Positions 8,072 through 21,311 are shown, counted from the first letter of the stretch. The stretch: DNA of 64,000 bases from Acidimicrobiia bacterium (GCA_965216445.1 OZ244166.1:1175515-1239514); one strand, 5' to 3'. Made by a program: numbers and translations. The notes: generated by a model not told the origin, from the letters alone.

Positions 8072-8755
8072 TCAGAACAGCGTTTCGGGCTCGGAAGGGT
8101 CCCGCAGTTCGCTGTCGTTGTTTTTCACCGAGTTGACCCGTCGTGAGACTGGGTGTTCCATCAGAAGGTCAGAGTCGATCGGTTGCAGCAAGCCGAGTGC
8201 TGTTTCGGGGTCGGTGAGCTCGCGATCCAGCCAGGCATCCCATGTTTCGTTCTTGAGGATCACCGGCATGCGATGGTGGATGTCTGTGATTGGACCGGAT
8301 GCTTCGGTCGTCAAGATGGAACACGTTCGCTCCCATTCTTGAGTCTCTTCGTTCATCCGTGCCGCCCAAATCCCGGCGAAGACCATCGGATGTCCGTCCG
8401 CCCTGTAGATCCAGTGAGGTGTTCGACCGGACTCGGCCGGCTCCCACTCGTAAAAGCCGTCCGATGGGATCAAACACCGTTTTCTGGCGAAGGAATCCCG
8501 GAACATTGGTGCGGTGGCAACGGTTTCCGATCGCGCGTTGATTTGTATTTGGCGCGTGTCCTTCGCCCAGTGCGGCACCAGCCCCCATTTCATCGATCCC
8601 AGAGCACGGGTGTCGTTGTGTTCTGCCACCACGTAGATTCGGTCGGTTGGCGCGACATTCCAACTGGCTTCGATGGCGTTTGTCTCGACATCGTCCACGC
8701 CGAAGTACTCGGCGTAGAAGTCGAGATCGCCTGTGATCGAAAACCTGCCGCACAT
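8072..8755 (-). CDS. SOS response-associated peptidase (SRAP/YedK/HMCES family), abasic-site processing protein
   Basis: Canonical N-terminus MCGRF (catalytic Cys2). WNVAPT, GLVPHWAKD and FYEWE motifs present. Confidence 0.9.
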   Translation of the reverse strand: MCGRFSITGDLDFYAEYFGVDDVETNAIEASWNVAPTDRIYVVAEHNDTRALGSMKWGLVPHWAKDTRQIQINARSETVATAPMFRDSFARKRCLIPSDGFYEWEPAESGRTPHWIYRADGHPMVFAGIWAARMNEETQEWERTCSILTTEASGPITDIHHRMPVILKNETWDAWLDRELTDPETALGLLQPIDSDLLMEHPVSRRVNSVKNNDSELRDPSEPETLF

Positions 8756-8758
8756 TCT

Positions 8759-9181
8759 TCAGGAAGCGGGTTGATTTCGGAGGTGGAGGGCCGATTCACG
8801 GAACTTCTCTGTCAAAAACCGCTGCAGCTGTTCGGGTAGGTCGACAGCCGTCATCGCCTCGTCCATGCACCTCATCCACTCTTCGGCCTCGACGTCGCCG
8901 ATGGAAAACGGAAGGTGTCGCATCCTCAGCCGGGGGTGACCCCGCTTTGAGATGTACAGCGGTGGGCCACCCAGCCAGCCCACAAGGAATTCGTAGAGCT
9001 TGGTTCGCGACGTGGAGGTGTTGGCTGGCAGCATTTCTCGAAGTCGGGGCGAATCGGCCTCAACAATGTCGTAGAACCGGTCGGTCAGCTCTCGCACCTG
9101 GCTTGCTCCGCCGATCTCCCCAAAAGGGGTGTCGGCATCCCCCCAGGGGTGTCTGGTCTCGAACGCAGGTGATGGCTTCAT
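8759..9181 (-). CDS. glbO: group II truncated haemoglobin (trHbO)
   Basis: 140 aa. YISKRGHPRLRMRHLPFSIG matches the trHb proximal region. 4 nt upstream of the SRAP gene on the same strand. Confidence 0.8.
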   Translation of the reverse strand: MKPSPAFETRHPWGDADTPFGEIGGASQVRELTDRFYDIVEADSPRLREMLPANTSTSRTKLYEFLVGWLGGPPLYISKRGHPRLRMRHLPFSIGDVEAEEWMRCMDEAMTAVDLPEQLQRFLTEKFRESALHLRNQPAS

Positions 9182-9270
9182 CAGCCCTGATTATCTCAAC
9201 TATCTCGCTCATTGCGAAGTGGCCGCTCTGGTGGAGGGCACGACTATCTTGACGCTGTGAGACATGTTTC

Positions 9271-9663
9271 GTGGGTCGTGGCCAGATGCTTGCCGCGCTG
9301 AGCATCCCAGCGGTTATTGCTGGTGTCGCATCGAGCGGTCTTGCCGCCACGATCGTGGGCCTGGCGGTCGGCGGTGTTTTGTCTGTGGTTGGGGTCGGAA
9401 ACGGCGCCAACATTGGTTTGATATTGGGCGTCGTGAGTGGCCTTTTTGCCGGTGGTTGGGTGGCGGGACGGCTGGCTATCCACTCAGAACGGTTTCACGG
9501 GGCAATCTCGGGGCTCCTCTTCGGAGGCATCTTGATCCTGTTGGCAAGCCTCTCGTCTACATCCGCATCGATATTCAACGTTCTTGTTCTGGCGCTGGTC
9601 TCGATCCTGTTCGGGGGATTTGGCGGCGTTGTGGGTGGTCGTCGGTCTCCGGCCGAGACGTAG
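9271..9663 (+). CDS. small Gly/Ala-rich membrane protein, hypothetical
   Basis: Four predicted TM helices rich in G/A/L. The alternative frame 9264..9677 is Arg/Cys/Trp-rich and looks non-coding. An internal ATG at 9286 could be the real start. Confidence 0.35.
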   Translation: MGRGQMLAALSIPAVIAGVASSGLAATIVGLAVGGVLSVVGVGNGANIGLILGVVSGLFAGGWVAGRLAIHSERFHGAISGLLFGGILILLASLSSTSASIFNVLVLALVSILFGGFGGVVGGRRSPAET

Positions 9664-9687
9664 CTCGACGCTACTAAAATGCTGTTG

Positions 9688-10029
9688 CGAGTTCGTCGGA
9701 CGGCCGCGGCGTGGGGATCCCCCAGGTCGAGGAAAGTCCGGACTCCACAGGGCATGGTGCTGGGTAACACCCAGGCGGGGTGACCCGACGGAAAGTGCAG
9801 CAGAAAGCAAACCGCCGATGGTCTTTGGACACAGGCAAGGGTGAAAAGGTGGTGTAAGAGACCACCAGCACTTCGGGTGACCGGAGTGGCTTGTAAACCC
9901 CACCAGGAGCAAGGCCAAGCAGGGATTGATGGCCCGTCGATATCCCGGGTAGGCCGCATGAGCTGACTGGTAACAGTCCGCCAAGATGGATGGTCGTCGC
10001 AACAGAATCCGGCTTATAGACGAACTCGC
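9688..10029 (+). ncRNA. rnpB: RNase P RNA (bacterial type A)
   Basis: Conserved P4 5' strand GAGGAAAGTCCGGACTCCACAGGGCA and P4 3' strand ACAGAATCCGGCTTA. P1 pairing CGAGTTCGTC(9688-9697)/GACGAACTCG(10020-10029). P3-like hairpin GTGGGGATCCCCCA. TAAAAT -10 box at 9675-9680, 7 nt before the predicted 5' end. Ends are +/- 5 nt. Confidence 0.85.
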
Positions 10030-10189
10030 ACTCGTGAAGAAGGCCCCCGATTGTCGGGGGCCTTCGCCTTGTCTTCTCCACGTTCCAAAATCCGGCGAAT
10101 CTACGTTGTCGGCCAATAGCCTGAGGGTGTCCGGAAACCTTTTCCAACCGGAGCAGGTCGAATCCGTGGCTTCAAAGGAGGAGTTGACG

Positions 10190-10837
10190 TTGGTTATCAA
10201 CAAATATCTGGCCGAATTCATGGGGACTTTGATCCTCGTGTTCGGCGGTTCGATGGGGATTCTGGCCGTCGGTGGTGCCAATGGCGCCGCCGAAATGTTG
10301 GCCATTTCCCTGGCATTCGGTATGGCCCTGTTGGCAGGGATTTGGGCACTCGGACATGTCTCTGGTGCTCACTTCAATCCCGCTGTCACCTTGAGCATGC
10401 TCCTAGACGGGCGAATCGGCGTTAGTGACGCAATCGGCTACTGGGTGGGACAGTTCGCCGGTGCAGCGGTAGCGTCGCTTCTGGTGGCGGGAGCCTCATC
10501 CACCGACATCGTTGCCGGCACCATGACGACGTTTACGGATCAGGGGACGGCGATTCTGATGGAGATCGCACTAACCGCGATATTCGTGTGGGTGATCATG
10601 GCGGTTACCAAAACTGGTGCGAACGCAGCCCCGGCCGCAATTGCCCTCACCCTGGTTGGTGTCCATCTTTCGGGTATCCCATTCTCAGGAGCGTCAGTCA
10701 ACCCGGCGCGTTCGTTCGGACCTGCTGTGGTCTCGGGGAACTTCGCTGACTTGTGGGTATACCTCGTGTTCCCGTTGGTCGGTGCTTTGGTGGCCTTCGG
10801 CCTATACCGGCTTTTCCCGGCGCCGGACGAAGCCTGA
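10190..10837 (+). CDS. aqpZ: aquaporin Z (MIP family water channel)
   Basis: Two NPA boxes (HFNPAVT and NPARSFGPAV). Start placed at TTG 10190, 7 nt after a strong AAGGAGGA RBS (10175-10182). The ORF-track start 9986 would run through rnpB. Confidence 0.85.
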   Translation: MVINKYLAEFMGTLILVFGGSMGILAVGGANGAAEMLAISLAFGMALLAGIWALGHVSGAHFNPAVTLSMLLDGRIGVSDAIGYWVGQFAGAAVASLLVAGASSTDIVAGTMTTFTDQGTAILMEIALTAIFVWVIMAVTKTGANAAPAAIALTLVGVHLSGIPFSGASVNPARSFGPAVVSGNFADLWVYLVFPLVGALVAFGLYRLFPAPDEA

Positions 10838-11462: not shown

Positions 11463-12080
11463 GTGAAACGTCTCATTCTCTTTGCGGTATTGGCACTCGT
11501 CGTCGCTGCGTGTGGTGGTTCAGCGGTTTCAGACCAATCCACTGATCCCACTGATCCTGCCAGCACGGAGACAACGTCGACCTCCGATACCCCGGCAACA
11601 ACCGGGTCGGACGGTGAAACTACGACCACACCAGCTGGCGAGACCTCGACCACTTCAGGTCGTGAGGTGGCCCCTGACTTCACTCTGCAGCTCGGTGAAG
11701 GTGGAACCTTCAGTCTTTCAGACAGCTCCAAGCCGGTCTATCTGGTCTTTTGGGCTGAGTGGTGACCAACCTGTCGACGGGAGTTGCCCGTCATCGACAG
11801 AATTGCGGCTGATTACGCCGATCGAATCGACTTCGTCGCCCCTGCGTGGAAGTCGTCGTTCGCGGCCACAGAGGAGCGTGCCAATGAACTGCTCCAGTCG
11901 GGCGTGATCATGTGGGGTTTGGACGAAGATGAAGAGATATTCTCGCTGTATGGAGTCCCTTACCAGCCGGTCACAGTACTGATCGCTGGCGACGACACAG
12001 TGGTCGAAGCCTGGCCCGGTCTCAGGGACGAGGCGGAGATTCGTGCCGCCCTGGATGCGCTCATAGCGCTGACGAGCTAA
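11463..12080 (+). CDS. TlpA-like thioredoxin-fold lipoprotein, predicted selenoprotein with in-frame UGA (Sec) at 11763-11765 (UXXC active site)
   Basis: ORFs 11463..11765 and 11784..12080 share one frame and are separated only by TGA. Read-through gives ...APDFTLQLGEGGTFSLSDSSKPVYLVFWAEW-U-PTCRRELPVIDRIAADYADRIDFVAPAW...FSLYGVPYQPVTVLIAGDDTVVEAWPG. This is a complete TlpA/ResA fold with TGA exactly at the first Cys of W-C-x-x-C. N-terminal signal peptide with lipobox (LVVAAC) and Thr/Ser-rich linker. SECIS-like hairpin directly downstream. Confidence 0.6.
11771..11800 (+). promoter_or_regulatory. candidate bacterial SECIS hairpin for UGA 11763-11765
   Basis: CTGTCGA-CGGG-[AGTTG]-CCCG-TCA-TCGACAG: 11 bp in two helical segments with a 3-nt bulge. 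Apical loop contains G and U about 20 nt after the UGA, within the usual bSECIS window. Confidence 0.45.
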
Positions 12081-13980: not shown

Positions 13981-14580
13981 TTACTCGGAAGGTCTTTGTT
14001 GCGTGTCGCCAGTGACTTGTTGTCCCGGCGTCTCTCCGGCAAGGATGCCGTCAAGTGTGGCGCCGAGGATGAGCGCGTCAGCCTCGCCGATGATCTTGCC
14101 GACCACGGTGCCCTCTTCGTTGATGAAAAACGTCTCGGGAATGCCAAATACCCCGTAGGCAATCGAAGCCCTCCCGCCAGGGTCCGAAAGGTAGATAGTC
14201 GACTCCGACCTTCCCGCTTCATCCAGGTAGGCGATGGCGGTTCCACGGTTCTCGTTGTAGAGGATTTGAACGAACTGGACCCCACGGTCCGCAAAAGCTT
14301 CTGAGGTGGCGACAAAGTCGGCGTGTTCGTTGCGACATTCGGGGCACCAGGAGGCAAAGAAGTTGACCACGGTGACACTCCCGGTAAGTTCCGAAGTGTC
14401 GAACTCCGATTCTTCGTCGAGCAATTGCATGGTGAGCTGTGGTGCCGGCTGACCGAGGAGGGGAGACTGAACGAGACCAGGATCAGAACCGAAACGACTC
14501 GCCAGAACCACTGATAGGACCACAGCCACACCGGCGACCGAAAGACCGACCCATTTCAGAACGCCGCCCCTCACGTGCAC
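13981..14580 (-). CDS. ccmG: thiol:disulfide interchange protein CcmG/DsbE
   Basis: WCPECR active site and the DsbE-specific GVFGIPETFFINEEGTVVGK motif. N-terminal membrane anchor. Last gene of the ccm operon. Confidence 0.75.
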   Translation of the reverse strand: MHVRGGVLKWVGLSVAGVAVVLSVVLASRFGSDPGLVQSPLLGQPAPQLTMQLLDEESEFDTSELTGSVTVVNFFASWCPECRNEHADFVATSEAFADRGVQFVQILYNENRGTAIAYLDEAGRSESTIYLSDPGGRASIAYGVFGIPETFFINEEGTVVGKIIGEADALILGATLDGILAGETPGQQVTGDTQQRPSE

Positions 14581-15593
14581 GCCTGTCCGGCCGAGGCCAG
14601 GTCGAAGTCACTTTGAACTTGGGACCGGGTTTCCTCAGAGAGCTCGGGGTTGGCTAACACCTCGGCGAAGAGCGTCGAAGCCTGCTGGTTGTCACCTGTC
14701 CCGCACCAGATCACTTGACCCTTCAGGTAAAGCGCCACCGTGGACTCGGGCACAATGGCCAGCGCCTCGTCAAACAGAGTCACGGCAGTCTCGACCTCGC
14801 CGTTTCCGTCGTAAGCCATCCAACCCAACCGTATGAGTGCCGTCGAAGCCTCCCCTTCAGTCGATCGTTCGTCCTCAGCTACCTGCAGGTAGAGCGGGAA
14901 GGCTGATCGATAGTCGCCCGCACTGAAATAGCGCTCGGCGAGTGCAACCCGCATCCCATTGACCTGGGGATGGTCGACGTTCGCAGCAATCACCGCCTCC
15001 ATAGTCTCGTTACTCACGCCATCGAGGTTGTCGACGTCGACGCTGGCAGCCCCTGACGTGGTGGCTGGACGATCCTGGATCATCGCGCCGGCTATCAAAA
15101 CGATCAATGCGAAGCCGCCGATCACGATTAGACCGCCGACAAGCCGACGATTGGTAGTTGATGGCGTCGTTTCGTCCTCCAGTCCTCCGCCCTCCGTGGC
15201 CACGGCGGGGCCGGGATGAGCTCGCCACCAGAAAATGACCGCGACGCCGATGGCCAGGGCCGCGATGGGTGCGAGCCAAAGAAACAATGTCGAACCGGAG
15301 GCTGGAGGGTCAAGCAAAACCGAGTTGCTGAACGAGGAGAGCAGTTCGTCGATGATCTCATCGTCGCTGGCTCCGGCGGCAACCCTCTCTTCCACCAGGT
15401 CCATCATGTCGGTAGCCATCTGGGCTGGTGAGTTGGCAATCGACTCACCCTGACAAACAGGGCATTTGATGGCTGTGCCGATCCGTTCGACGCGATCGTC
15501 GGGAGTCTCGGCGGTTGCAACCAGTCCGATCAGCACGAGGGTCAGGACACCGAGAAGAGACCCGACAACGAGATTTCTGGCTCTGTCAGACAT
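14571..15593 (-). CDS. ccmH: cytochrome c-type biogenesis protein CcmH (CXXC) with C-terminal TPR/CcmI-like domain
   Basis: KCPVCQGESIANSPAQMA matches the CcmH LRCPVCQ motif. TM segment, then TPR-like repeats. Start taken at ATG 15593 (MSDRARN...), which overlaps the ccmF stop as ATGTCTGA. The ORF track begins at 15659. Confidence 0.75.
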   Translation of the reverse strand: MSDRARNLVVGSLLGVLTLVLIGLVATAETPDDRVERIGTAIKCPVCQGESIANSPAQMATDMMDLVEERVAAGASDDEIIDELLSSFSNSVLLDPPASGSTLFLWLAPIAALAIGVAVIFWWRAHPGPAVATEGGGLEDETTPSTTNRRLVGGLIVIGGFALIVLIAGAMIQDRPATTSGAASVDVDNLDGVSNETMEAVIAANVDHPQVNGMRVALAERYFSAGDYRSAFPLYLQVAEDERSTEGEASTALIRLGWMAYDGNGEVETAVTLFDEALAIVPESTVALYLKGQVIWCGTGDNQQASTLFAEVLANPELSEETRSQVQSDFDLASAGQACT

Positions 15594-17616
15594 CAGCCGT
15601 TTGACGTTTCGGCACGGTGTTGGGTTCCCCTCGGCGCGAAGTGAGAGCCCAGAAGCCACCCGCTGCCGCCAGCATGCCGCCGACCCACAGCAGCCAGATC
15701 AGCGGCGAAGTATCCAGCGATAGGGTCGCCGCCGGTGAGGTGCCGGGAGGGATACGCAGGGTGAGGTAAAGGTCCCCGCTGGGTCTGGTCAGGACCGATG
15801 GTGTTGTGATGCCCGAACCCGATCGGTAGAAGTTCACGGTTGGTTCCAACGTGGTCACGAAGCGACCCCCACGGAAAACGCTGATACGGACTCCCAAAAC
15901 TGTCCGTTGCGGTTGTTCGGACTGGAATGGGCTCTCGTAGACGAGTTCGTATCCAGCGAAGTTGGTCGATTCACCCGGTTCGAGTTCGACGGTGCTGTGG
16001 ACTCCGAGATTGGCTGCGAATGCAATACCCAGTGCTACCAGCACCACGCCAATGTGGCTCAGTTGGCCTGCCCAGAATGGTGTATCTCCACGTACCACTG
16101 TTCCCACAGCTTCGAGGAGTGACTCGCCCGTCTTATTAGATCTCCGACTCGCCTGTTCGAGTAGAAGTCCGAGGATGACACCGATTACGAAGACAGCGAG
16201 GACCGTCGCCAGGATCACCCATCCCAGTCGGGTCACGGTTAAAGCCACGATCAGTCCCGCAGTCACGGCAATCAACGCCGGGTTGCGAATCTGTCGCCAT
16301 ACGACTTCGGCAGAAGCGTGTCGCCAGGGTGTAATTGGTCCAAAACCCATGACGAGAAGTAGCGCGAAGGAAAGGGGCACAGCGAGACGGTTGAAGAAAG
16401 GCTCGCCGACTCCCACCTGAGTTCCGGTGAATGCTTCCACCAGCAATGGGTAGGTGGTTCCGATCAGGACGACAAATGCATACAGGGTGAGAATCAGGTT
16501 GTTTGCCAGGAAAGTTCCTTCCCGGCTAGCGAACGATTCGATCCGTGGTGCCGAGCTGACCAAATGCGATCTGGTGGCGAAAAGCGTGAATGAACCGACC
16601 AACACCAAAGTCAGGAATCCGAGAAGGGCGGGTCCAATCGCTGACTGTGTGAACGAGTGGACCGAGTTGATCGTCCCCGACCGGGTGAGGAAGGTGCCGA
16701 GGATCGTGAGAGCGAAAGCAGATATCACAAGTACGAAATTCCAGGCCTGGAGCATGTTGCGGCGTTGTTGCACAATCGCCGAGTGGAGGAACGCCGTGGC
16801 AACTAGCCACGGCATCAGCGAAGCGTTTTCCACTGGGTCCCATGCCCAGTATCCACCCCAGGAAAGAACCTCATAAGCCCACCACCCACCGAGAACGATC
16901 CCGAAAGTGAGAAAGCTCCAGGCGACCAGAGTCGACCGATGAGATCTCCGGAGCCAGGCGGGACCGGGAACTTTGAGTGCCAGGGCCGAAATTGCGAAAG
17001 AGAACGGAACGGATAGTCCCACGTAACCGAGGTAGAGCATTGGGGGGTGGATCGCCATCAAGATGTGGTTTTGCAGCAGGTCGTTGGGCCCTGCACCGTC
17101 TGCAGGTGCCTGAATCGATGAGAAGGGCCACGGGCTGGACACTGCGCATGCTCTCTCCGCTGCCTCGACGCACACTTCGAACGGGTTGGAGACTGTGATC
17201 ATCAAGGCAAAGAAGAAGATCCCAATGCCGCCCATTACCGCCAGCGCGCCTGCCCCAAGCCGGTCCGGTGCGGTTTCGTAACGCCTCAGTACCGCCCAGG
17301 TGAAACCGGCCAACACCAAGCCCCACAGCACGATGGATCCTTCGAGTGCTCCCCAGGCGCTGGCGACATTGAATGGGAACGGTGTCGAAGACGCATGGTG
17401 GTTGGCAACGTATGAGATCTGAAAGTCATTCGTCACCAGCGCCAGCTCCAACGCAACCATTGCCACAACGGCACCACTGAGAAGCAACCGCACGGGTGGT
17501 CTGAGGTTCGACACACCCGTTTCGGAGCGGGCGACTGCCACCGCTCTGGCCACGAGAAGAACTGCTCCAACCAGACCTGCTGCGATTCCGATTGTTCCCA
17601 AGAGGGAAAGCAGCAT
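15586..17616 (-). CDS. ccmF: cytochrome c haem lyase subunit CcmF
   Basis: 676 aa polytopic protein with the WWD domain WGGYWAWDPVENASLMPWL. Confidence 0.9.
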   Translation of the reverse strand: MLLSLLGTIGIAAGLVGAVLLVARAVAVARSETGVSNLRPPVRLLLSGAVVAMVALELALVTNDFQISYVANHHASSTPFPFNVASAWGALEGSIVLWGLVLAGFTWAVLRRYETAPDRLGAGALAVMGGIGIFFFALMITVSNPFEVCVEAAERACAVSSPWPFSSIQAPADGAGPNDLLQNHILMAIHPPMLYLGYVGLSVPFSFAISALALKVPGPAWLRRSHRSTLVAWSFLTFGIVLGGWWAYEVLSWGGYWAWDPVENASLMPWLVATAFLHSAIVQQRRNMLQAWNFVLVISAFALTILGTFLTRSGTINSVHSFTQSAIGPALLGFLTLVLVGSFTLFATRSHLVSSAPRIESFASREGTFLANNLILTLYAFVVLIGTTYPLLVEAFTGTQVGVGEPFFNRLAVPLSFALLLVMGFGPITPWRHASAEVVWRQIRNPALIAVTAGLIVALTVTRLGWVILATVLAVFVIGVILGLLLEQASRRSNKTGESLLEAVGTVVRGDTPFWAGQLSHIGVVLVALGIAFAANLGVHSTVELEPGESTNFAGYELVYESPFQSEQPQRTVLGVRISVFRGGRFVTTLEPTVNFYRSGSGITTPSVLTRPSGDLYLTLRIPPGTSPAATLSLDTSPLIWLLWVGGMLAAAGGFWALTSRRGEPNTVPKRQTADV

Positions 17617-18023
17617 CAGCTGTCCTCTACCGGCGTTCCCTCTTCGGGAATGACGTAGTTCTCGTCGTGGCGGATGAGTGCGTTTGTTGCCGCGTAGTCG
17701 TCACCGTCCCAAGATCCGTCGAGAAGTACCGGGACCGTATCGTTGAACAGAGGCGGGGGAGTGTCGGCGAGTCGGACGCTGATTGTTGCTCCACCGTCGG
17801 TGACGTCAAACAAAAGATCGTCTCCAACCTCGACCACGGTCCCCGGCACCACCGAACCGGCCAACCGGAATTGCTCGCCGTCAGGGAACGAATCCCGCTG
17901 GTCCACTGCTTCGGTGGGATAGAGGTAATAAGTCAGGTTGTCATCGAGATTGATCAATGACATTGCCACGATCAGAGCGATGATGCCTCCGATTCCAAGA
18001 AGGACCAGAGATCGATGCTCCAT
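17616..18023 (-). CDS. ccmE: cytochrome c maturation haem chaperone CcmE
   Basis: N-terminal TM anchor then OB-fold. C-terminal LIRHDENYVIPEE matches the CcmE haem-binding HDENY motif. Confidence 0.85.
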   Translation of the reverse strand: MEHRSLVLLGIGGIIALIVAMSLINLDDNLTYYLYPTEAVDQRDSFPDGEQFRLAGSVVPGTVVEVGDDLLFDVTDGGATISVRLADTPPPLFNDTVPVLLDGSWDGDDYAATNALIRHDENYVIPEEGTPVEDS

Positions 18024-18025
18024 TA

Positions 18026-18130
18026 CTACCGCTCCGCTCTCTTGCGACGCAGATGCAGATAGACGGCATAGCCAAGGGTCGACCCGTAGACAACGGCGTA
18101 AGTTGCGATCACGACCAGCGAATCAGACAT
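18026..18130 (-). CDS. ccmD: haem exporter protein CcmD (35 aa, single TM)
   Basis: Not in the ORF track. Minus strand reads ATG TCT GAT ... = MSDSLVVIATYAVVYGSTLGYAVYLHLRRKRAER*, a hydrophobic helix followed by basic residues as in CcmD. The ATG overlaps the ccmC stop as ATGTCTGA, and the stop lies 2 nt before the ccmE ATG. Confidence 0.5.
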   Translation of the reverse strand: MSDSLVVIATYAVVYGSTLGYAVYLHLRRKRAER

Positions 18131-18833
18131 CTTTCACCTCGGACAGCCGTGGGGGTGAAACTGGATCGTTGGCTAGATCGGCGTCGAGTTCGGCCGCCTC
18201 CTCAATCCGTCCGACGTATGTTCGAGCCATGAGAAGTGCGATGTAGAGCACAGTGAACGCAGCGACATTGACCAGCATCGCAACCAGAATCTCGGTTGCG
18301 AGAGTGCTCCCATCGGGTCGAATTGACTGTGTCTGGTGAAGGGTTCGCCAGAGGTTGACCGAGAAGTAAACAAGAGGAACCTGGACAACAGCAACGGTGC
18401 CGAGTATTGCCGCCCGTTTTGCTCGTGTTTCGGGGTCGGCGACCGCCCTTCGCAAGGCGAGATAGCCGATGTAGACGAAGATCATCACCGCCGTTGTGGC
18501 GAGACGTGCGTCGCTCCAGTCCCATGCCTGTCCCCACACGGCCTGACCCCAGACCATCCCTGTGAACACACCGACCACTGAGAAAATGACTCCGATCTCC
18601 GCAGAGGCTGCCGCGAGCCGATCCCATCGCCGGTTCTTGGTCAGCAAGTACAGAACTGAGCCGAGTGCGGTCAATCCGAATGCGAGAAACGCCAGCCACA
18701 AAGTCGGGACGTGGACGTAGATCATTCGGGTGTAGACACCTTGGAGCTGGTCGAGGGGAGCGGTGAATGCCAGGAATGCACCGTAGGCCAGCGCAATCGC
18801 CGCTACGAGAAAGGTCACCTGTACTCGTCTCAT
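18123..18833 (-). CDS. ccmC: haem exporter protein CcmC
   Basis: WGQAVWGQAWDWSDARL is the CcmC WWD motif (WGxxWxWDxR). 236 aa, 6 TM. Confidence 0.9.
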   Translation of the reverse strand: MRRVQVTFLVAAIALAYGAFLAFTAPLDQLQGVYTRMIYVHVPTLWLAFLAFGLTALGSVLYLLTKNRRWDRLAAASAEIGVIFSVVGVFTGMVWGQAVWGQAWDWSDARLATTAVMIFVYIGYLALRRAVADPETRAKRAAILGTVAVVQVPLVYFSVNLWRTLHQTQSIRPDGSTLATEILVAMLVNVAAFTVLYIALLMARTYVGRIEEAAELDADLANDPVSPPRLSEVKDV

Positions 18834-19504
18834 CTGGTTGCTTCCTCAAGGGGTCTCGACAACGCTATCCCGGCTACGAACAGAGCCAAATCGGCTGTGG
18901 TCAACAACAGAATCCATAACAGGATACCGTTGCCTCGTTCCATAGCTTCCAGGACCTGAGAGGCACCGACCACGACGGGTATCAGGAGGGGCGCCACGAT
19001 CAGGGATGCGAGGGAGGATCGGTTCCGTAAGCCGCTGGCGACTTCGCCGGCGAGGGTGGAGAGCATCGCCAGGCCAACCGAAGCAAGTGCACTTGCGAGC
19101 AGAACGGGGAGTGGCCAGCCATCCGGGAGATCTGGGTTGAAGAGGAATACCATCGACATCCACAACACCGCCATGAAGCCCAGCAGCAGCAATGTGGCAG
19201 CAAGGGATCGCCCGAGGAAACGTGCGGCCGGGTCGAGCCCGAGAAGCATTGTCGTGTCCCGTCGTTGCGATGTCTCAGATACCGAGGTTCGTAATGCCAC
19301 CTGCATTCCGTAGAGAATGGCAACGGCCCAGAAAATCGCTGTGCCGAGATCATTGAGCGAGGTCCCGGAGTCTGCAGCGACGATGGAGAAGATCATCATG
19401 GCGACGACTGCAAAGGGAAGGACGATGCGGAACGTGTCACCCAGACGGCGCTCCACGACCAGGTCGACTCTGGCTACCTCAGCGGTCTGACGCCACAAGG
19501 TCAT
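18830..19504 (-). CDS. ccmB: haem exporter membrane protein CcmB
   Basis: 224 aa polytopic ABC-2 type permease. Sits between ccmA and ccmC with ATGA overlaps. Confidence 0.8.
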   Translation of the reverse strand: MTLWRQTAEVARVDLVVERRLGDTFRIVLPFAVVAMMIFSIVAADSGTSLNDLGTAIFWAVAILYGMQVALRTSVSETSQRRDTTMLLGLDPAARFLGRSLAATLLLLGFMAVLWMSMVFLFNPDLPDGWPLPVLLASALASVGLAMLSTLAGEVASGLRNRSSLASLIVAPLLIPVVVGASQVLEAMERGNGILLWILLLTTADLALFVAGIALSRPLEEATR

Positions 19505-20145
19505 GATCTGCGCTCCAGCTGTCCGCCGGTTAGACGCAAGGTTGTCTGGAACACCGGTGAAAGGCCATCGGGCTCGTGGGTGACCGCCACCACACCACCG
19601 CCACGTTCCAATGTGGTTGCAGTGAGGGCATCGACAAGTCCCCGGGAGTCAGCATCCAGCCCGGTGCGCGCCTCATCGAGGAGAAGCAGTTTCGGCTTGG
19701 CCATCAGTAGCCAGGCAACCTCGACCCTTCGCTTCATACCGAAACTGGACTCCGAAACCCGCGTCGAGGCGGCCCGTTCCAAGCCAACGGTGTGCAACGC
19801 CTTTGCTGTTGCCTCCTGGGGGCGACCGGTCAGGGTATTGAAGTGGTTGAGGTTCTCTTCGAGGGTCAGCTCCTCCAACAGACCAGGCGTGTGACTGATG
19901 AGGCCGATCGAGGTTCGAATCTTCCGTATTCCGCTGCTGCCGATGTCAGTGCCCAAGACGGACCCCGAACCGGATCGAGGGCGTATCAGAGTGGCTAGGA
20001 GTCTGAGCAATGTAGTTTTTCCACTTCCGTTGGCGCCGACCACCGCGCACGCTTCACCGGTGCCCAAACTGAAATCGACATCACGGAGGATTGTCTTCCC
20101 GCCGAGGGCGACTGTCACGGAATGCAGGTCAAAGATGCTGCTCAC
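19501..20145 (-). CDS. ccmA: cytochrome c biogenesis ABC ATPase CcmA
   Basis: Walker A GANGSGKTT, signature SFGMKRR, Walker B LLLLDEARTGLD. 214 aa. Confidence 0.8.
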   Translation of the reverse strand: MSSIFDLHSVTVALGGKTILRDVDFSLGTGEACAVVGANGSGKTTLLRLLATLIRPRSGSGSVLGTDIGSSGIRKIRTSIGLISHTPGLLEELTLEENLNHFNTLTGRPQEATAKALHTVGLERAASTRVSESSFGMKRRVEVAWLLMAKPKLLLLDEARTGLDADSRGLVDALTATTLERGGGVVAVTHEPDGLSPVFQTTLRLTGGQLERRS

Positions 20146-20176: not shown

Positions 20177-20839
20177 TCAAGTTGGATTGGGGTCCCGACG
20201 CGAGCCGATCAAGGCGATTGCCAACCCAGCAGCGATCCCAGCGATGTACCAGGCCGTCGGACCCCCGGTCAACGACAGTCGGAAGGGTTCAGTCATCAAT
20301 CGCACCGCTGAAGCGAGTGCCAGTGCGGAACCACCCCGCACTCCGACCGTCCAAGGCAGTCGGGAAACAGCAACAGCTGCTCCGAGCATCCCAAGGGCGG
20401 CGTAGATCTCGACCGGGTGACGGGTGATTGTGCTCCCCGCCTCAGACCATGCCCAAGGGAGAGAAGAAGCGGTTCCCAGGCAGGCACCCCTCCAAAGGCA
20501 GCCGAGGTGCCATCCGGCCAACCCCAGCAAAGCCGTGGGTGCCAGGGCATCGAGAGATCGAAGATGCTTTCCCGTCATCAGGAACAGCGTCACCACAGCA
20601 AAGACAACAGCAGCCGGTGTGTTGACCCCACCCCGGACAATTATCAAATCGCCGAGGTTCGTGATGGGGTTGATGCCCTGTAGGGCCATTGCGGTTACCC
20701 GTCCTCCCAACAATCCCGCAGCGGCCGATCCAAGAAGGGCATCGAATGCTGAATCCGGGACACGCTCTGGCCACAATCTGAGTCCAACCCACATTGCAGC
20801 TACTGCTGTGAGCGCTGCCCACAAGAGTGTGAACTCCAT
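20177..20839 (-). CDS. Lgt-like (prolipoprotein diacylglyceryl transferase family) membrane protein, short form
   Basis: LLGGRVTAMAL and GCLWRGACLGTASSLPWAW resemble the Lgt GGRIGY and GRLGNFINGELWG...LPWA motifs, but the protein is 220 aa against about 290 for Lgt. Its ATG lies 1 nt after the stop of the upstream tlpA-like gene. Confidence 0.4.
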   Translation of the reverse strand: MEFTLLWAALTAVAAMWVGLRLWPERVPDSAFDALLGSAAAGLLGGRVTAMALQGINPITNLGDLIIVRGGVNTPAAVVFAVVTLFLMTGKHLRSLDALAPTALLGLAGWHLGCLWRGACLGTASSLPWAWSEAGSTITRHPVEIYAALGMLGAAVAVSRLPWTVGVRGGSALALASAVRLMTEPFRLSLTGGPTAWYIAGIAAGLAIALIGSRRDPNPT

Positions 20840-20840
20840 C

Positions 20841-21311
20841 TCAGCCGTTCAGGATTTCGTCAATACCGAGTGCAAGCGTCCGATCGTCGATCACACCGAG
20901 ATGGGTATCGACGAGGGCGCCCGTGTCATCGAAGAAAAAGGTGATTGGTGTTCCTATCCCACCAAAGTGGCGAGGCACCGAGCGGTCGCGATCGAAGTAG
21001 TGATCGAACACGAGGCCAAAACTGGCGATGAAATCCTTCGCTCCTGGCTGGCTGTCCTGCACGTCAATCCCGATGAACTCGACGTCGTCACCAAACTGCT
21101 CGTATGCGGCCGTCAGCAATGGTGCCTCGGATCGGCAGGGCCCGCACCAGGAAGCCCATACGTTCACGACTGCCGGTCGCTCCAGGTCGACAAGTATTTG
21201 CTCGAGTTCAGGTCCGGTCGTAGGTGGAAGGTCAGGTAGATCCTGGCCTGCCAGATCGGATCCCGAACAAGCAGACAGGATGATGGCGAGCGCGACGAGG
21301 ATCCTCTTCAC
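20841..21311 (-). CDS. TlpA/ResA-like thiol:disulfide oxidoreductase lipoprotein
   Basis: Signal peptide with lipobox (LAIILSAC), active site WASWCGPCR, thioredoxin fold. First gene of the ccm operon. Confidence 0.75.
   Translation of the reverse strand: MKRILVALAIILSACSGSDLAGQDLPDLPPTTGPELEQILVDLERPAVVNVWASWCGPCRSEAPLLTAAYEQFGDDVEFIGIDVQDSQPGAKDFIASFGLVFDHYFDRDRSVPRHFGGIGTPITFFFDDTGALVDTHLGVIDDRTLALGIDEILNG

Follow-up and report, generated by a model that had tools for sequence, protein, structure and literature searches.

The window, that is, the whole 64-kb stretch of DNA that was analysed, contains two open reading frames on the plus strand (11463-11765 and 11784-12080) that lie in the same frame and are divided by a single in-frame TGA at 11763-11765, codon 101 of the combined frame. 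When the TGA is read through, the product runs ...KPVYLVFWAEW*PTCRRELPVIDRIAADY... to the TAA at 12078-12080. The residues at the junction are FWAEW-[TGA]-P-T-C-R-R-E-L-P, which places the TGA at the first Cys position of a CxxC motif. The features assigned to this gene are as follows.

11463-12080, plus strand: predicted complete selenoprotein coding sequence with a GTG start, 205 codons and a TAA at 12078-12080, codon 101 being selenocysteine (Sec)
11463-11513, plus strand: predicted lipoprotein signal peptide VKRLILFAVLALVVAA with the lipobox Cys17 (codon 11511-11513), as read from the sequence
11514-11666, plus strand: low-complexity linker of ~50 residues, rich in Thr, Ser, Pro and Asp, which varies in length and sequence across the family
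11667-12077, plus strand: TlpA/ResA-like thioredoxin-fold domain with U101-P-T-C104 and the cis-Pro motif YQP169, from Pfam and PDB profile matches
11763-11765, plus strand: UGA codon, predicted to be read as Sec, at the nucleophilic first Cys of CxxC, from orthologue comparison
11772-11774, plus strand: resolving Cys104 (TGT) of UxxC, invariant in the family alignment
11776-11792, plus strand: putative bacterial SECIS core, a 6-bp helix (11776-11781 with 11787-11792) and the loop AGUUG (11782-11786), from covariation and specificity to Sec forms
11771-11800, plus strand: extended stem with five further base pairs under a 3-nt bulge, from the minimum free energy (MFE) fold, with weak comparative support

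The N-terminus is composed of a KR pair, a hydrophobic stretch and V-A-A-C17 and, on reading the sequence, fits the lipobox pattern [LVI][ASTVI][GAS]C. Cys17 is invariant in 33 of 33 aligned family members, and the protein would be expected to undergo cleavage by signal peptidase II and lipidation at this residue. A Pfam match of the linker to New_glue scores below the cut-off and is an artefact of low complexity. The domain that follows exceeds the Pfam gathering cut-offs (given second) of AhpC-TSA (44.6, 26), Redoxin (43.7, 26.6), Thioredoxin (33, 23.5) and Thioredoxin_2 (29.2, 27), and the AhpC-TSA, Redoxin and Thioredoxin_2 matches cross the TGA, jointly covering residues 69-197. Assignment to the superfamily was based on scores above the gathering cut-offs for PF08534, PF00578 and PF13098 together with a CxxC-type site and a cis-Pro loop, all of which are found here, and P169 of the cis-Pro loop is invariant in the family alignment. 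A profile of the family aligned with PDB entries without gaps across the TGA, the matches being the Etrx lipoproteins (4hqs, 4hqz and 2yp6), ResA, and DsbF and MPT53 of M. tuberculosis; in the solved Etrx- and ResA-type structures the residue aligned with the TGA is the first Cys of CxxC. The original prediction, made from the sequence alone, held that two same-frame reading frames, the first ending KPVYLVFWAEW*, are parted by a TGA, that read-through restores a TlpA/ResA block with Sec in place of the nucleophilic Cys, and that neither half is a plausible protein alone. All three points are borne out: both reading frames and the single TGA are present, the Pfam and PDB profile matches span the TGA, and by neither method is a thioredoxin fold found in either half.

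The surroundings of the gene include the following features.

8759-9181 and 8072-8755, minus strand: truncated-haemoglobin-type globin, then SRAP peptidase, in the same frame
9688-10032, plus strand: bacterial RNase P RNA class A (313.8 bits)
13981-20145, minus strand: System I cytochrome c maturation operon with ccmG (Cys form, WCPEC), ccmH, ccmF, ccmE, ccmC, ccmB and ccmA, from Pfam and NCBIfam
20177-20839, minus strand: short Lgt-like (PF01790) membrane protein, directly upstream of ccmA
20841-21311, minus strand: second TlpA-like lipoprotein (Cys form, WCGPC), upstream of ccmA

The stretch 8072-9181 on the minus strand was considered as another read-through candidate and rejected, the globin and SRAP genes being two ordinary genes in the same frame with a TGA between them. 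The reading frames 9264-9677 (plus), 9495-9959 (minus) and 9484-10305 (minus) adjoin or overlap the RNase P RNA and are likely spurious.

A System I ccm operon, already noted in the original prediction, is confirmed at a distance of ~2 kb from the gene. The operon encodes its own Cys-type CcmG (13981-14580), which scores 97.9 bits against TIGR00385 versus 26.1 for the putative selenoprotein, and the latter is therefore regarded as a paralogue with a distinct substrate rather than as CcmG. The TlpA-like and Lgt-like pair apparently heads the ccm operon of the window. A ccm neighbourhood is found in 9 of the 19 Sec-form loci with enough flanking sequence, all of them in the window's branch of the family; the linkage seems to be specific to one clade and is only partly supported as a functional argument. 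In another clade, matches to the 20177-21311 stretch adjoin the Sec gene (for example, in loci L101, L105, L130, L155 and L185), and in L155 and L101 the reading frame beside the Sec gene has a lipoprotein-type N-terminus. These matches suggest a common extracytoplasmic redox neighbourhood, without thereby identifying the substrate. They were revealed by a 271-residue reading frame at 20424-21239 (plus strand) that has no Pfam match and gave tblastn matches in 19 related loci; this apparent conserved neighbour proved to be an antisense shadow cast by the TlpA-like/Lgt-like pair and was discarded. An apparent coupling of an Lgt paralogue to thioredoxin-like lipoproteins and Ccm was noted at 20177-21311 (minus strand). 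The occurrence of a complete System I (Ccm) operon in an apparent Acidimicrobiia-type actinobacterium is a separate observation; Actinobacteria are usually described as System II users.

Homologues were sought among 5.8 billion proteins, and the 120 clusters listed fall into two classes. About 70 of them are full length (137-246 aa) and, with one exception, have FWAEW-C-x-x-C, while at least 50 (112-266 aa) terminate exactly at ...FWAEW. In 69 Cys-form clusters the first Cys of CxxC is aligned with UGA-101. The exception is a JGI gene call (P0058; locus L213, 99-716) in which the homologous TGA is translated as W, giving FWAEW-W-GSC. This Trp is a miscalled TGA, presumably owing to the use of an alternative genetic code, and the entry is a full-length yet wrong database protein. 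Public gene callers annotate the TGA form as split or ended at the TGA. At two loci, L001 (NCBI MAG GCA_041751055.1) and L002, the stop is TGA and is followed by 102-104 conserved in-frame codons, in a neighbourhood like that of the window. A scan of metagenome contigs with the pattern FWAEW-TGA-xx-TGY gave at least 88 unique orthologous TGA sequences from metagenomes and MAGs, some of them only ~40% identical at the protein level. In complete TGA orthologues the frame stays intact for 98-106 codons past the TGA and closes at the homologous stop; the sole exception (L170) contains an ambiguous base and overruns that stop.

A second contig scan used the pattern FWAEWC[PS]xC, which could yield Cys forms only, and six true orthologues were obtained. 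Cys forms (TGY) occupy the same locus, in the order MIP channel, GGACT, Cys-form gene, DUF4440, PAF-AH-type hydrolase and then ccmG-H-F-E-D-C-B-A, and the named genomes that carry them are Acidimicrobiia, Acidimicrobiales or Acidimicrobiaceae MAGs. Both Cys and Sec orthologues are equal in length and architecture to the 11463-12080 coding sequence. The FWAEW-TGA-xx-TGY scan also caught other thioredoxin-fold genes with an in-frame TGA at CxxC and an intact downstream frame (L083, L089, L102, L106, L112, L118, L134, L135, L165, L201 and others; further L111, L171, L194; L095, L141; L132, L182; L196; L116). These loci include thioredoxins (U-GGC, U-GPC) and redoxin-like families (U-HFC, U-GAC, U-PSC, U-EGC). 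Sec thioredoxin is a known family.

Selection on the two halves of the gene was estimated from pairwise Nei-Gojobori medians for 19 Sec forms of equal downstream length. The dN/dS ratio is 0.145 downstream (codons 13-104 after the TGA; dS=1.68, saturated) and 0.12 upstream (the 32 codons before the TGA). The low downstream ratio therefore effectively rules out a pseudogene and genuine termination. Over the 12 SECIS codons dS is 0.59 versus 1.68 in the remaining gene, or about one third.

The core helix of the hairpin starts 10 nt after the UGA and its loop 16 nt after it (spacer 11766-11781). The 19-nt core has an energy of −10.7 kcal/mol and the 30-nt extended stem one of −14.8 kcal/mol. The lower helix of the extended stem is 77% paired among orthologues and shows no covariation. 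For the window sequence alone the fold is not significant relative to shuffled sequences (z=−1.17); the significance of the hairpin comes from the orthologue comparison and not from the fold of the lone sequence. Codons 4-9 after the TGA are near-fixed at the nucleotide level in Sec forms (CGA CGG GAG TTG CCC GTC), the counts among 88 sequences being CGG 78, GAG 83, TTG 71, CCC 77 and GTC/GTT 77, with CGA, CGG or CAA as the first codon. Across 84 distinct Sec forms the helix is paired in 97% of cells and compensatory changes are present at four of the six pairs (both sides altered, 24 cells). None of 500 shuffles matched the observed helix values, and slid registers are 29-58% paired. Whenever codon 4 is CAA (nine cases), codon 9 is GTT, and whenever codon 5 is CAG (five cases), codon 8 is CCT; this clearest compensation pairs an Arg-to-Gln change with a silent change in the partner codon.

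All six pairs are complete in 75 of the 84 Sec forms versus 0 of 10 unique Cys forms, and the median hairpin energy is −10.6 kcal/mol for Sec forms versus −1.0 kcal/mol for Cys forms, which encode the same RRELPV without keeping the hairpin. Partial SECIS remnants (for example, CGT CGG GAG TTG CCC GTC) are seen in the Cys forms L203-L206, which are 70-74% identical to the window protein, and this looks like a recent Sec-to-Cys conversion after which the constraint on the RNA was relaxed.

The published consensus for bacterial SECIS (bSECIS) elements specifies a loop of 3-9 nt, an upper stem of 4-16 bp, a UGA-loop distance of 16-37 nt, an MFE of −7.5 kcal/mol or lower and a G at loop position 1 or 2, usually followed by G or U (PMC13188914 Fig. 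2). The window hairpin, in which the loop is 5 nt and the helix 6 bp (or 7 bp where codon 10 begins with G), satisfies all of these, the 16-nt spacing being the shortest that the consensus allows. G is at loop position 2 in 79 of the 84 Sec forms; the other five have AAC..., neither position 1 nor position 2 being G. A SECIS covariance model gave 71.9 bits at 11776-11792 and found no second SECIS in the window. Rfam searches of the window at the gathering threshold and of 11700-11900 at E≤10 returned no SECIS family, as would be anticipated, since Rfam covers the bacterial SECIS elements of coding regions poorly. Several further elements of the original prediction can be judged against these data. 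The stem-loop that it placed 6 nt after the UGA corresponds to the extended stem, which starts at the sixth nucleotide, and the proposed pattern search led to a hairpin that fits the bSECIS consensus and is kept only in TGA forms. It had also called for Cys orthologues conserved on either flank of the UGA, and such orthologues exist, including syntenic ones. Degraded or unrelated sequence past the TGA, which would have counted against it, is not what the TGA orthologues contain: they keep a conserved in-frame downstream half under purifying selection.

Components of the Sec machinery were sought in the available sequence. The 64-kb window has no tRNA genes, ARAGORN found no tRNA-Sec (selC) in the window and 211 loci (1.09 Mb), and tblastn with E. 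coli SelA, SelB and SelD as queries gave no match to selA, selB or selD in either the window or these related loci. All complete genomes of Actinomarinales, another order of Acidimicrobiia, are reported in a 2026 preprint to contain selA, selB, selC and selD (bioRxiv 10.64898/2026.04.03.716425), and this is the sole support at the level of the lineage.

A neighbour-joining tree of 139 domain sequences, a rough analysis with a midpoint root, places Sec forms throughout the family and Cys forms in several derived clusters. By parsimony at least 13 Sec/Cys switches are needed and Sec is preferred at the midpoint root, consistent with the decaying hairpins of the recent Cys forms. A wider proposal is that Sec is ancestral in an Acidimicrobiia-wide family of surface-tethered selenolipoproteins, that it has repeatedly given way to Cys, and that these proteins cooperate with System I ccm and the TlpA-like/Lgt-like pair. 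Taken as a whole we consider this speculative and rather doubtful; if true, this would be the first case in Actinomycetota of a selenoprotein linked to the biogenesis of cytochrome c or to a thiol-redox module dedicated to the extracytoplasmic space.

Other explanations of the TGA were weighed against the same evidence. The public gene calls treat it as a genuine stop, which would give two polypeptides, with re-initiation at the TTG at 11784, 18 nt past the TGA, or the N-terminal half alone. However, each syntenic Cys form is one uninterrupted chain that keeps this sequence at the junction; a stop would leave the resolving Cys and the RRE, which follow the TGA and precede the TTG, untranslated; and neither half is a thioredoxin fold by itself. 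The TTG is moreover the Leu codon within the hairpin loop, where several orthologues have a non-start Leu codon instead (CTC, CTT or CTG), and we regard genuine termination as very unlikely. A nonsense-mutated pseudogene, or a one-base sequencing or assembly error, is suggested by the single base (TGY to TGA) that distinguishes the Cys and TGA forms, but we give it next to no weight. The TGA is common to at least 88 unique sequences, from independent assemblies and with protein identities as low as ~40% in some; the dN/dS of 0.145 past it is accompanied by the lack of any further stop within 98-106 codons in complete orthologues; and the hairpin is under selection.

Genome-wide reassignment of UGA, for example to Trp or Gly, finds a precedent in the JGI call that reads the homologous TGA as W. 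TGA is, however, the commonest stop in the window and terminates 37 of its 62 long reading frames, including neighbours with Pfam-consistent lengths, and a genome-wide reassignment is therefore hardly credible. A scan of the window for TGA-interrupted reading frames with coding-like composition on both sides found no coding-type in-frame TGA other than 11763-11765, the remaining matches being adjacent separate genes or antisense shadows. The last alternative is that a near-cognate tRNA inserts Cys or Trp at UGA-101, with no Sec involved and with a hairpin that merely slows termination. It draws on the fact that the Sec machinery was not found in the window and 1.09 Mb of related loci, and purifying selection downstream demands read-through of some kind. 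Nevertheless, Trp at this position would wreck the active site, and the hairpin conforms to the bSECIS consensus in every respect, spacing and loop G included, and vanishes when the codon is TGY. Furthermore, a catalytic redox position that is Cys in some sequences and UGA in others is the classic signature of a selenoprotein (PMC1088965; PMC13188914). We judge read-through without Sec to be improbable.

The reading that we prefer, with a probability of about 0.9, is that 11463-12080 is one gene, which would encode a thiol-disulfide oxidoreductase of the TlpA/ResA/Etrx type that is exported, held by a lipid anchor and equipped with Sec as its nucleophile. The UGA is at the catalytic position, both halves of the gene are under purifying selection, Cys and UGA alternate in syntenic orthologues, and the hairpin is conserved, covarying and specific to the Sec forms. 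Judged by sequence comparison, Sec insertion is probably SelB dependent, and export, lipidation and reductase chemistry are likewise predicted. During translation the hairpin 3′ of UGA-101 would act as a bacterial SECIS, to which SelB with Sec-tRNA(Sec) would bind, bringing Sec to the UGA, and the ribosome would then proceed through 104 more codons. After export and lipidation at Cys17, the product would be held at the cytoplasmic membrane's outer surface by a flexible, Thr/Ser-rich tether ~50 residues long. There, U101 would attack a substrate disulfide (or sulfenate) to form a selenenyl-sulfide intermediate, C104 would resolve it, and a membrane electron shuttle would recycle the enzyme. The physiological substrate may have a connection with the maturation of cytochrome c or with the repair of extracytoplasmic oxidative damage.

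For annotation, the result means that gene callers that take UGA only as a stop miss a family of redox proteins from Acidimicrobiia-type bacteria in many environments. The gene also points to selenium use in this lineage and would place a selenol nucleophile outside the cell membrane. The numerous natural pairs of Sec and Cys forms at one syntenic locus, together with the decaying SECIS, provide a clean system for the study of Sec-to-Cys replacement, dual coding and RNA-structure constraint. The finding leaves the understanding of selenoprotein function unaltered, and its value is mainly in annotation and in the natural Sec/Cys series.

Among the predicted selenoproteins of bacteria, those of the UxxC type with a thioredoxin fold are the commonest. 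These proteins, TlpA-like members and lipoproteins included, constitute an established class (PMC13188914 Table 1; PMC1088965). With that class established and with selA, selB, selC and selD reported in Actinomarinales, a Sec TlpA-type protein in an actinobacterial context is less unusual than the original prediction had supposed. Like the window protein, the known UxxC selenoproteins belong to the same fold superfamily, use an N-terminal nucleophilic Sec, have Cys homologues and carry a bSECIS directly after the UGA. The window protein differs from them in its motif (U-P-T-C, not UGC), its Acidimicrobiia-type host and its architecture of lipoprotein signal and linker. The ‘thiol-disulfide isomerase-like’ proteins of the Sargasso data read ...DW-U-TWC..., whereas the window family differs in sequence; neither the Sargasso nor the GOS supplementary files contain the string FWAEW, and the searchable literature does not contain FWAEWU. 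An exported thioredoxin fold is likewise a property of two curated NCBIfam (seleno)protein families, NF041057 (‘Rcas_1661 family thioredoxin-like (seleno)lipoprotein’) and NF041054 (‘ResA-like WAxxUGC motif-containing protein’), and the former also has the lipoprotein anchor. The window protein is a member of neither, scoring 25.6 against a cut-off of 190 for NF041057 and 21.9 against 300 for NF041054. It also falls below the NCBIfam cut-offs for ResA (NF002854, 50.6 versus 170), TlpA (NF047696, 29.8 versus 230) and DsbE/CcmG (TIGR00385, 26.1 versus 123; NF011941, 26 versus 359), although CcmG/DsbE belong to the same superfamily.

The best relatives of solved structure are S. pneumoniae Etrx1/Etrx2 (4hqs, 4hqz and 2yp6) and B. 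subtilis ResA (1st9), with E=5e-21 to 3e-16. The alignments cover the entire domain and place CxxC on U101-C104; identity is low, and Etrx and ResA use Cys. Etrx and ResA have a membrane or lipid anchor, an extracytoplasmic location and reductase-type chemistry, as predicted for the window protein. The SECIS elements of E. coli fdhF and fdnG are similarly hairpins of the coding region; like the window element, they directly follow the UGA, at the consensus spacing, and have a small apical loop in which U follows G. The window hairpin is unrelated to them in sequence and has no bulged U evident in its 6-bp core. Thus, by comparison with these systems, the window protein apparently represents an undescribed family within a known kind of selenoprotein.
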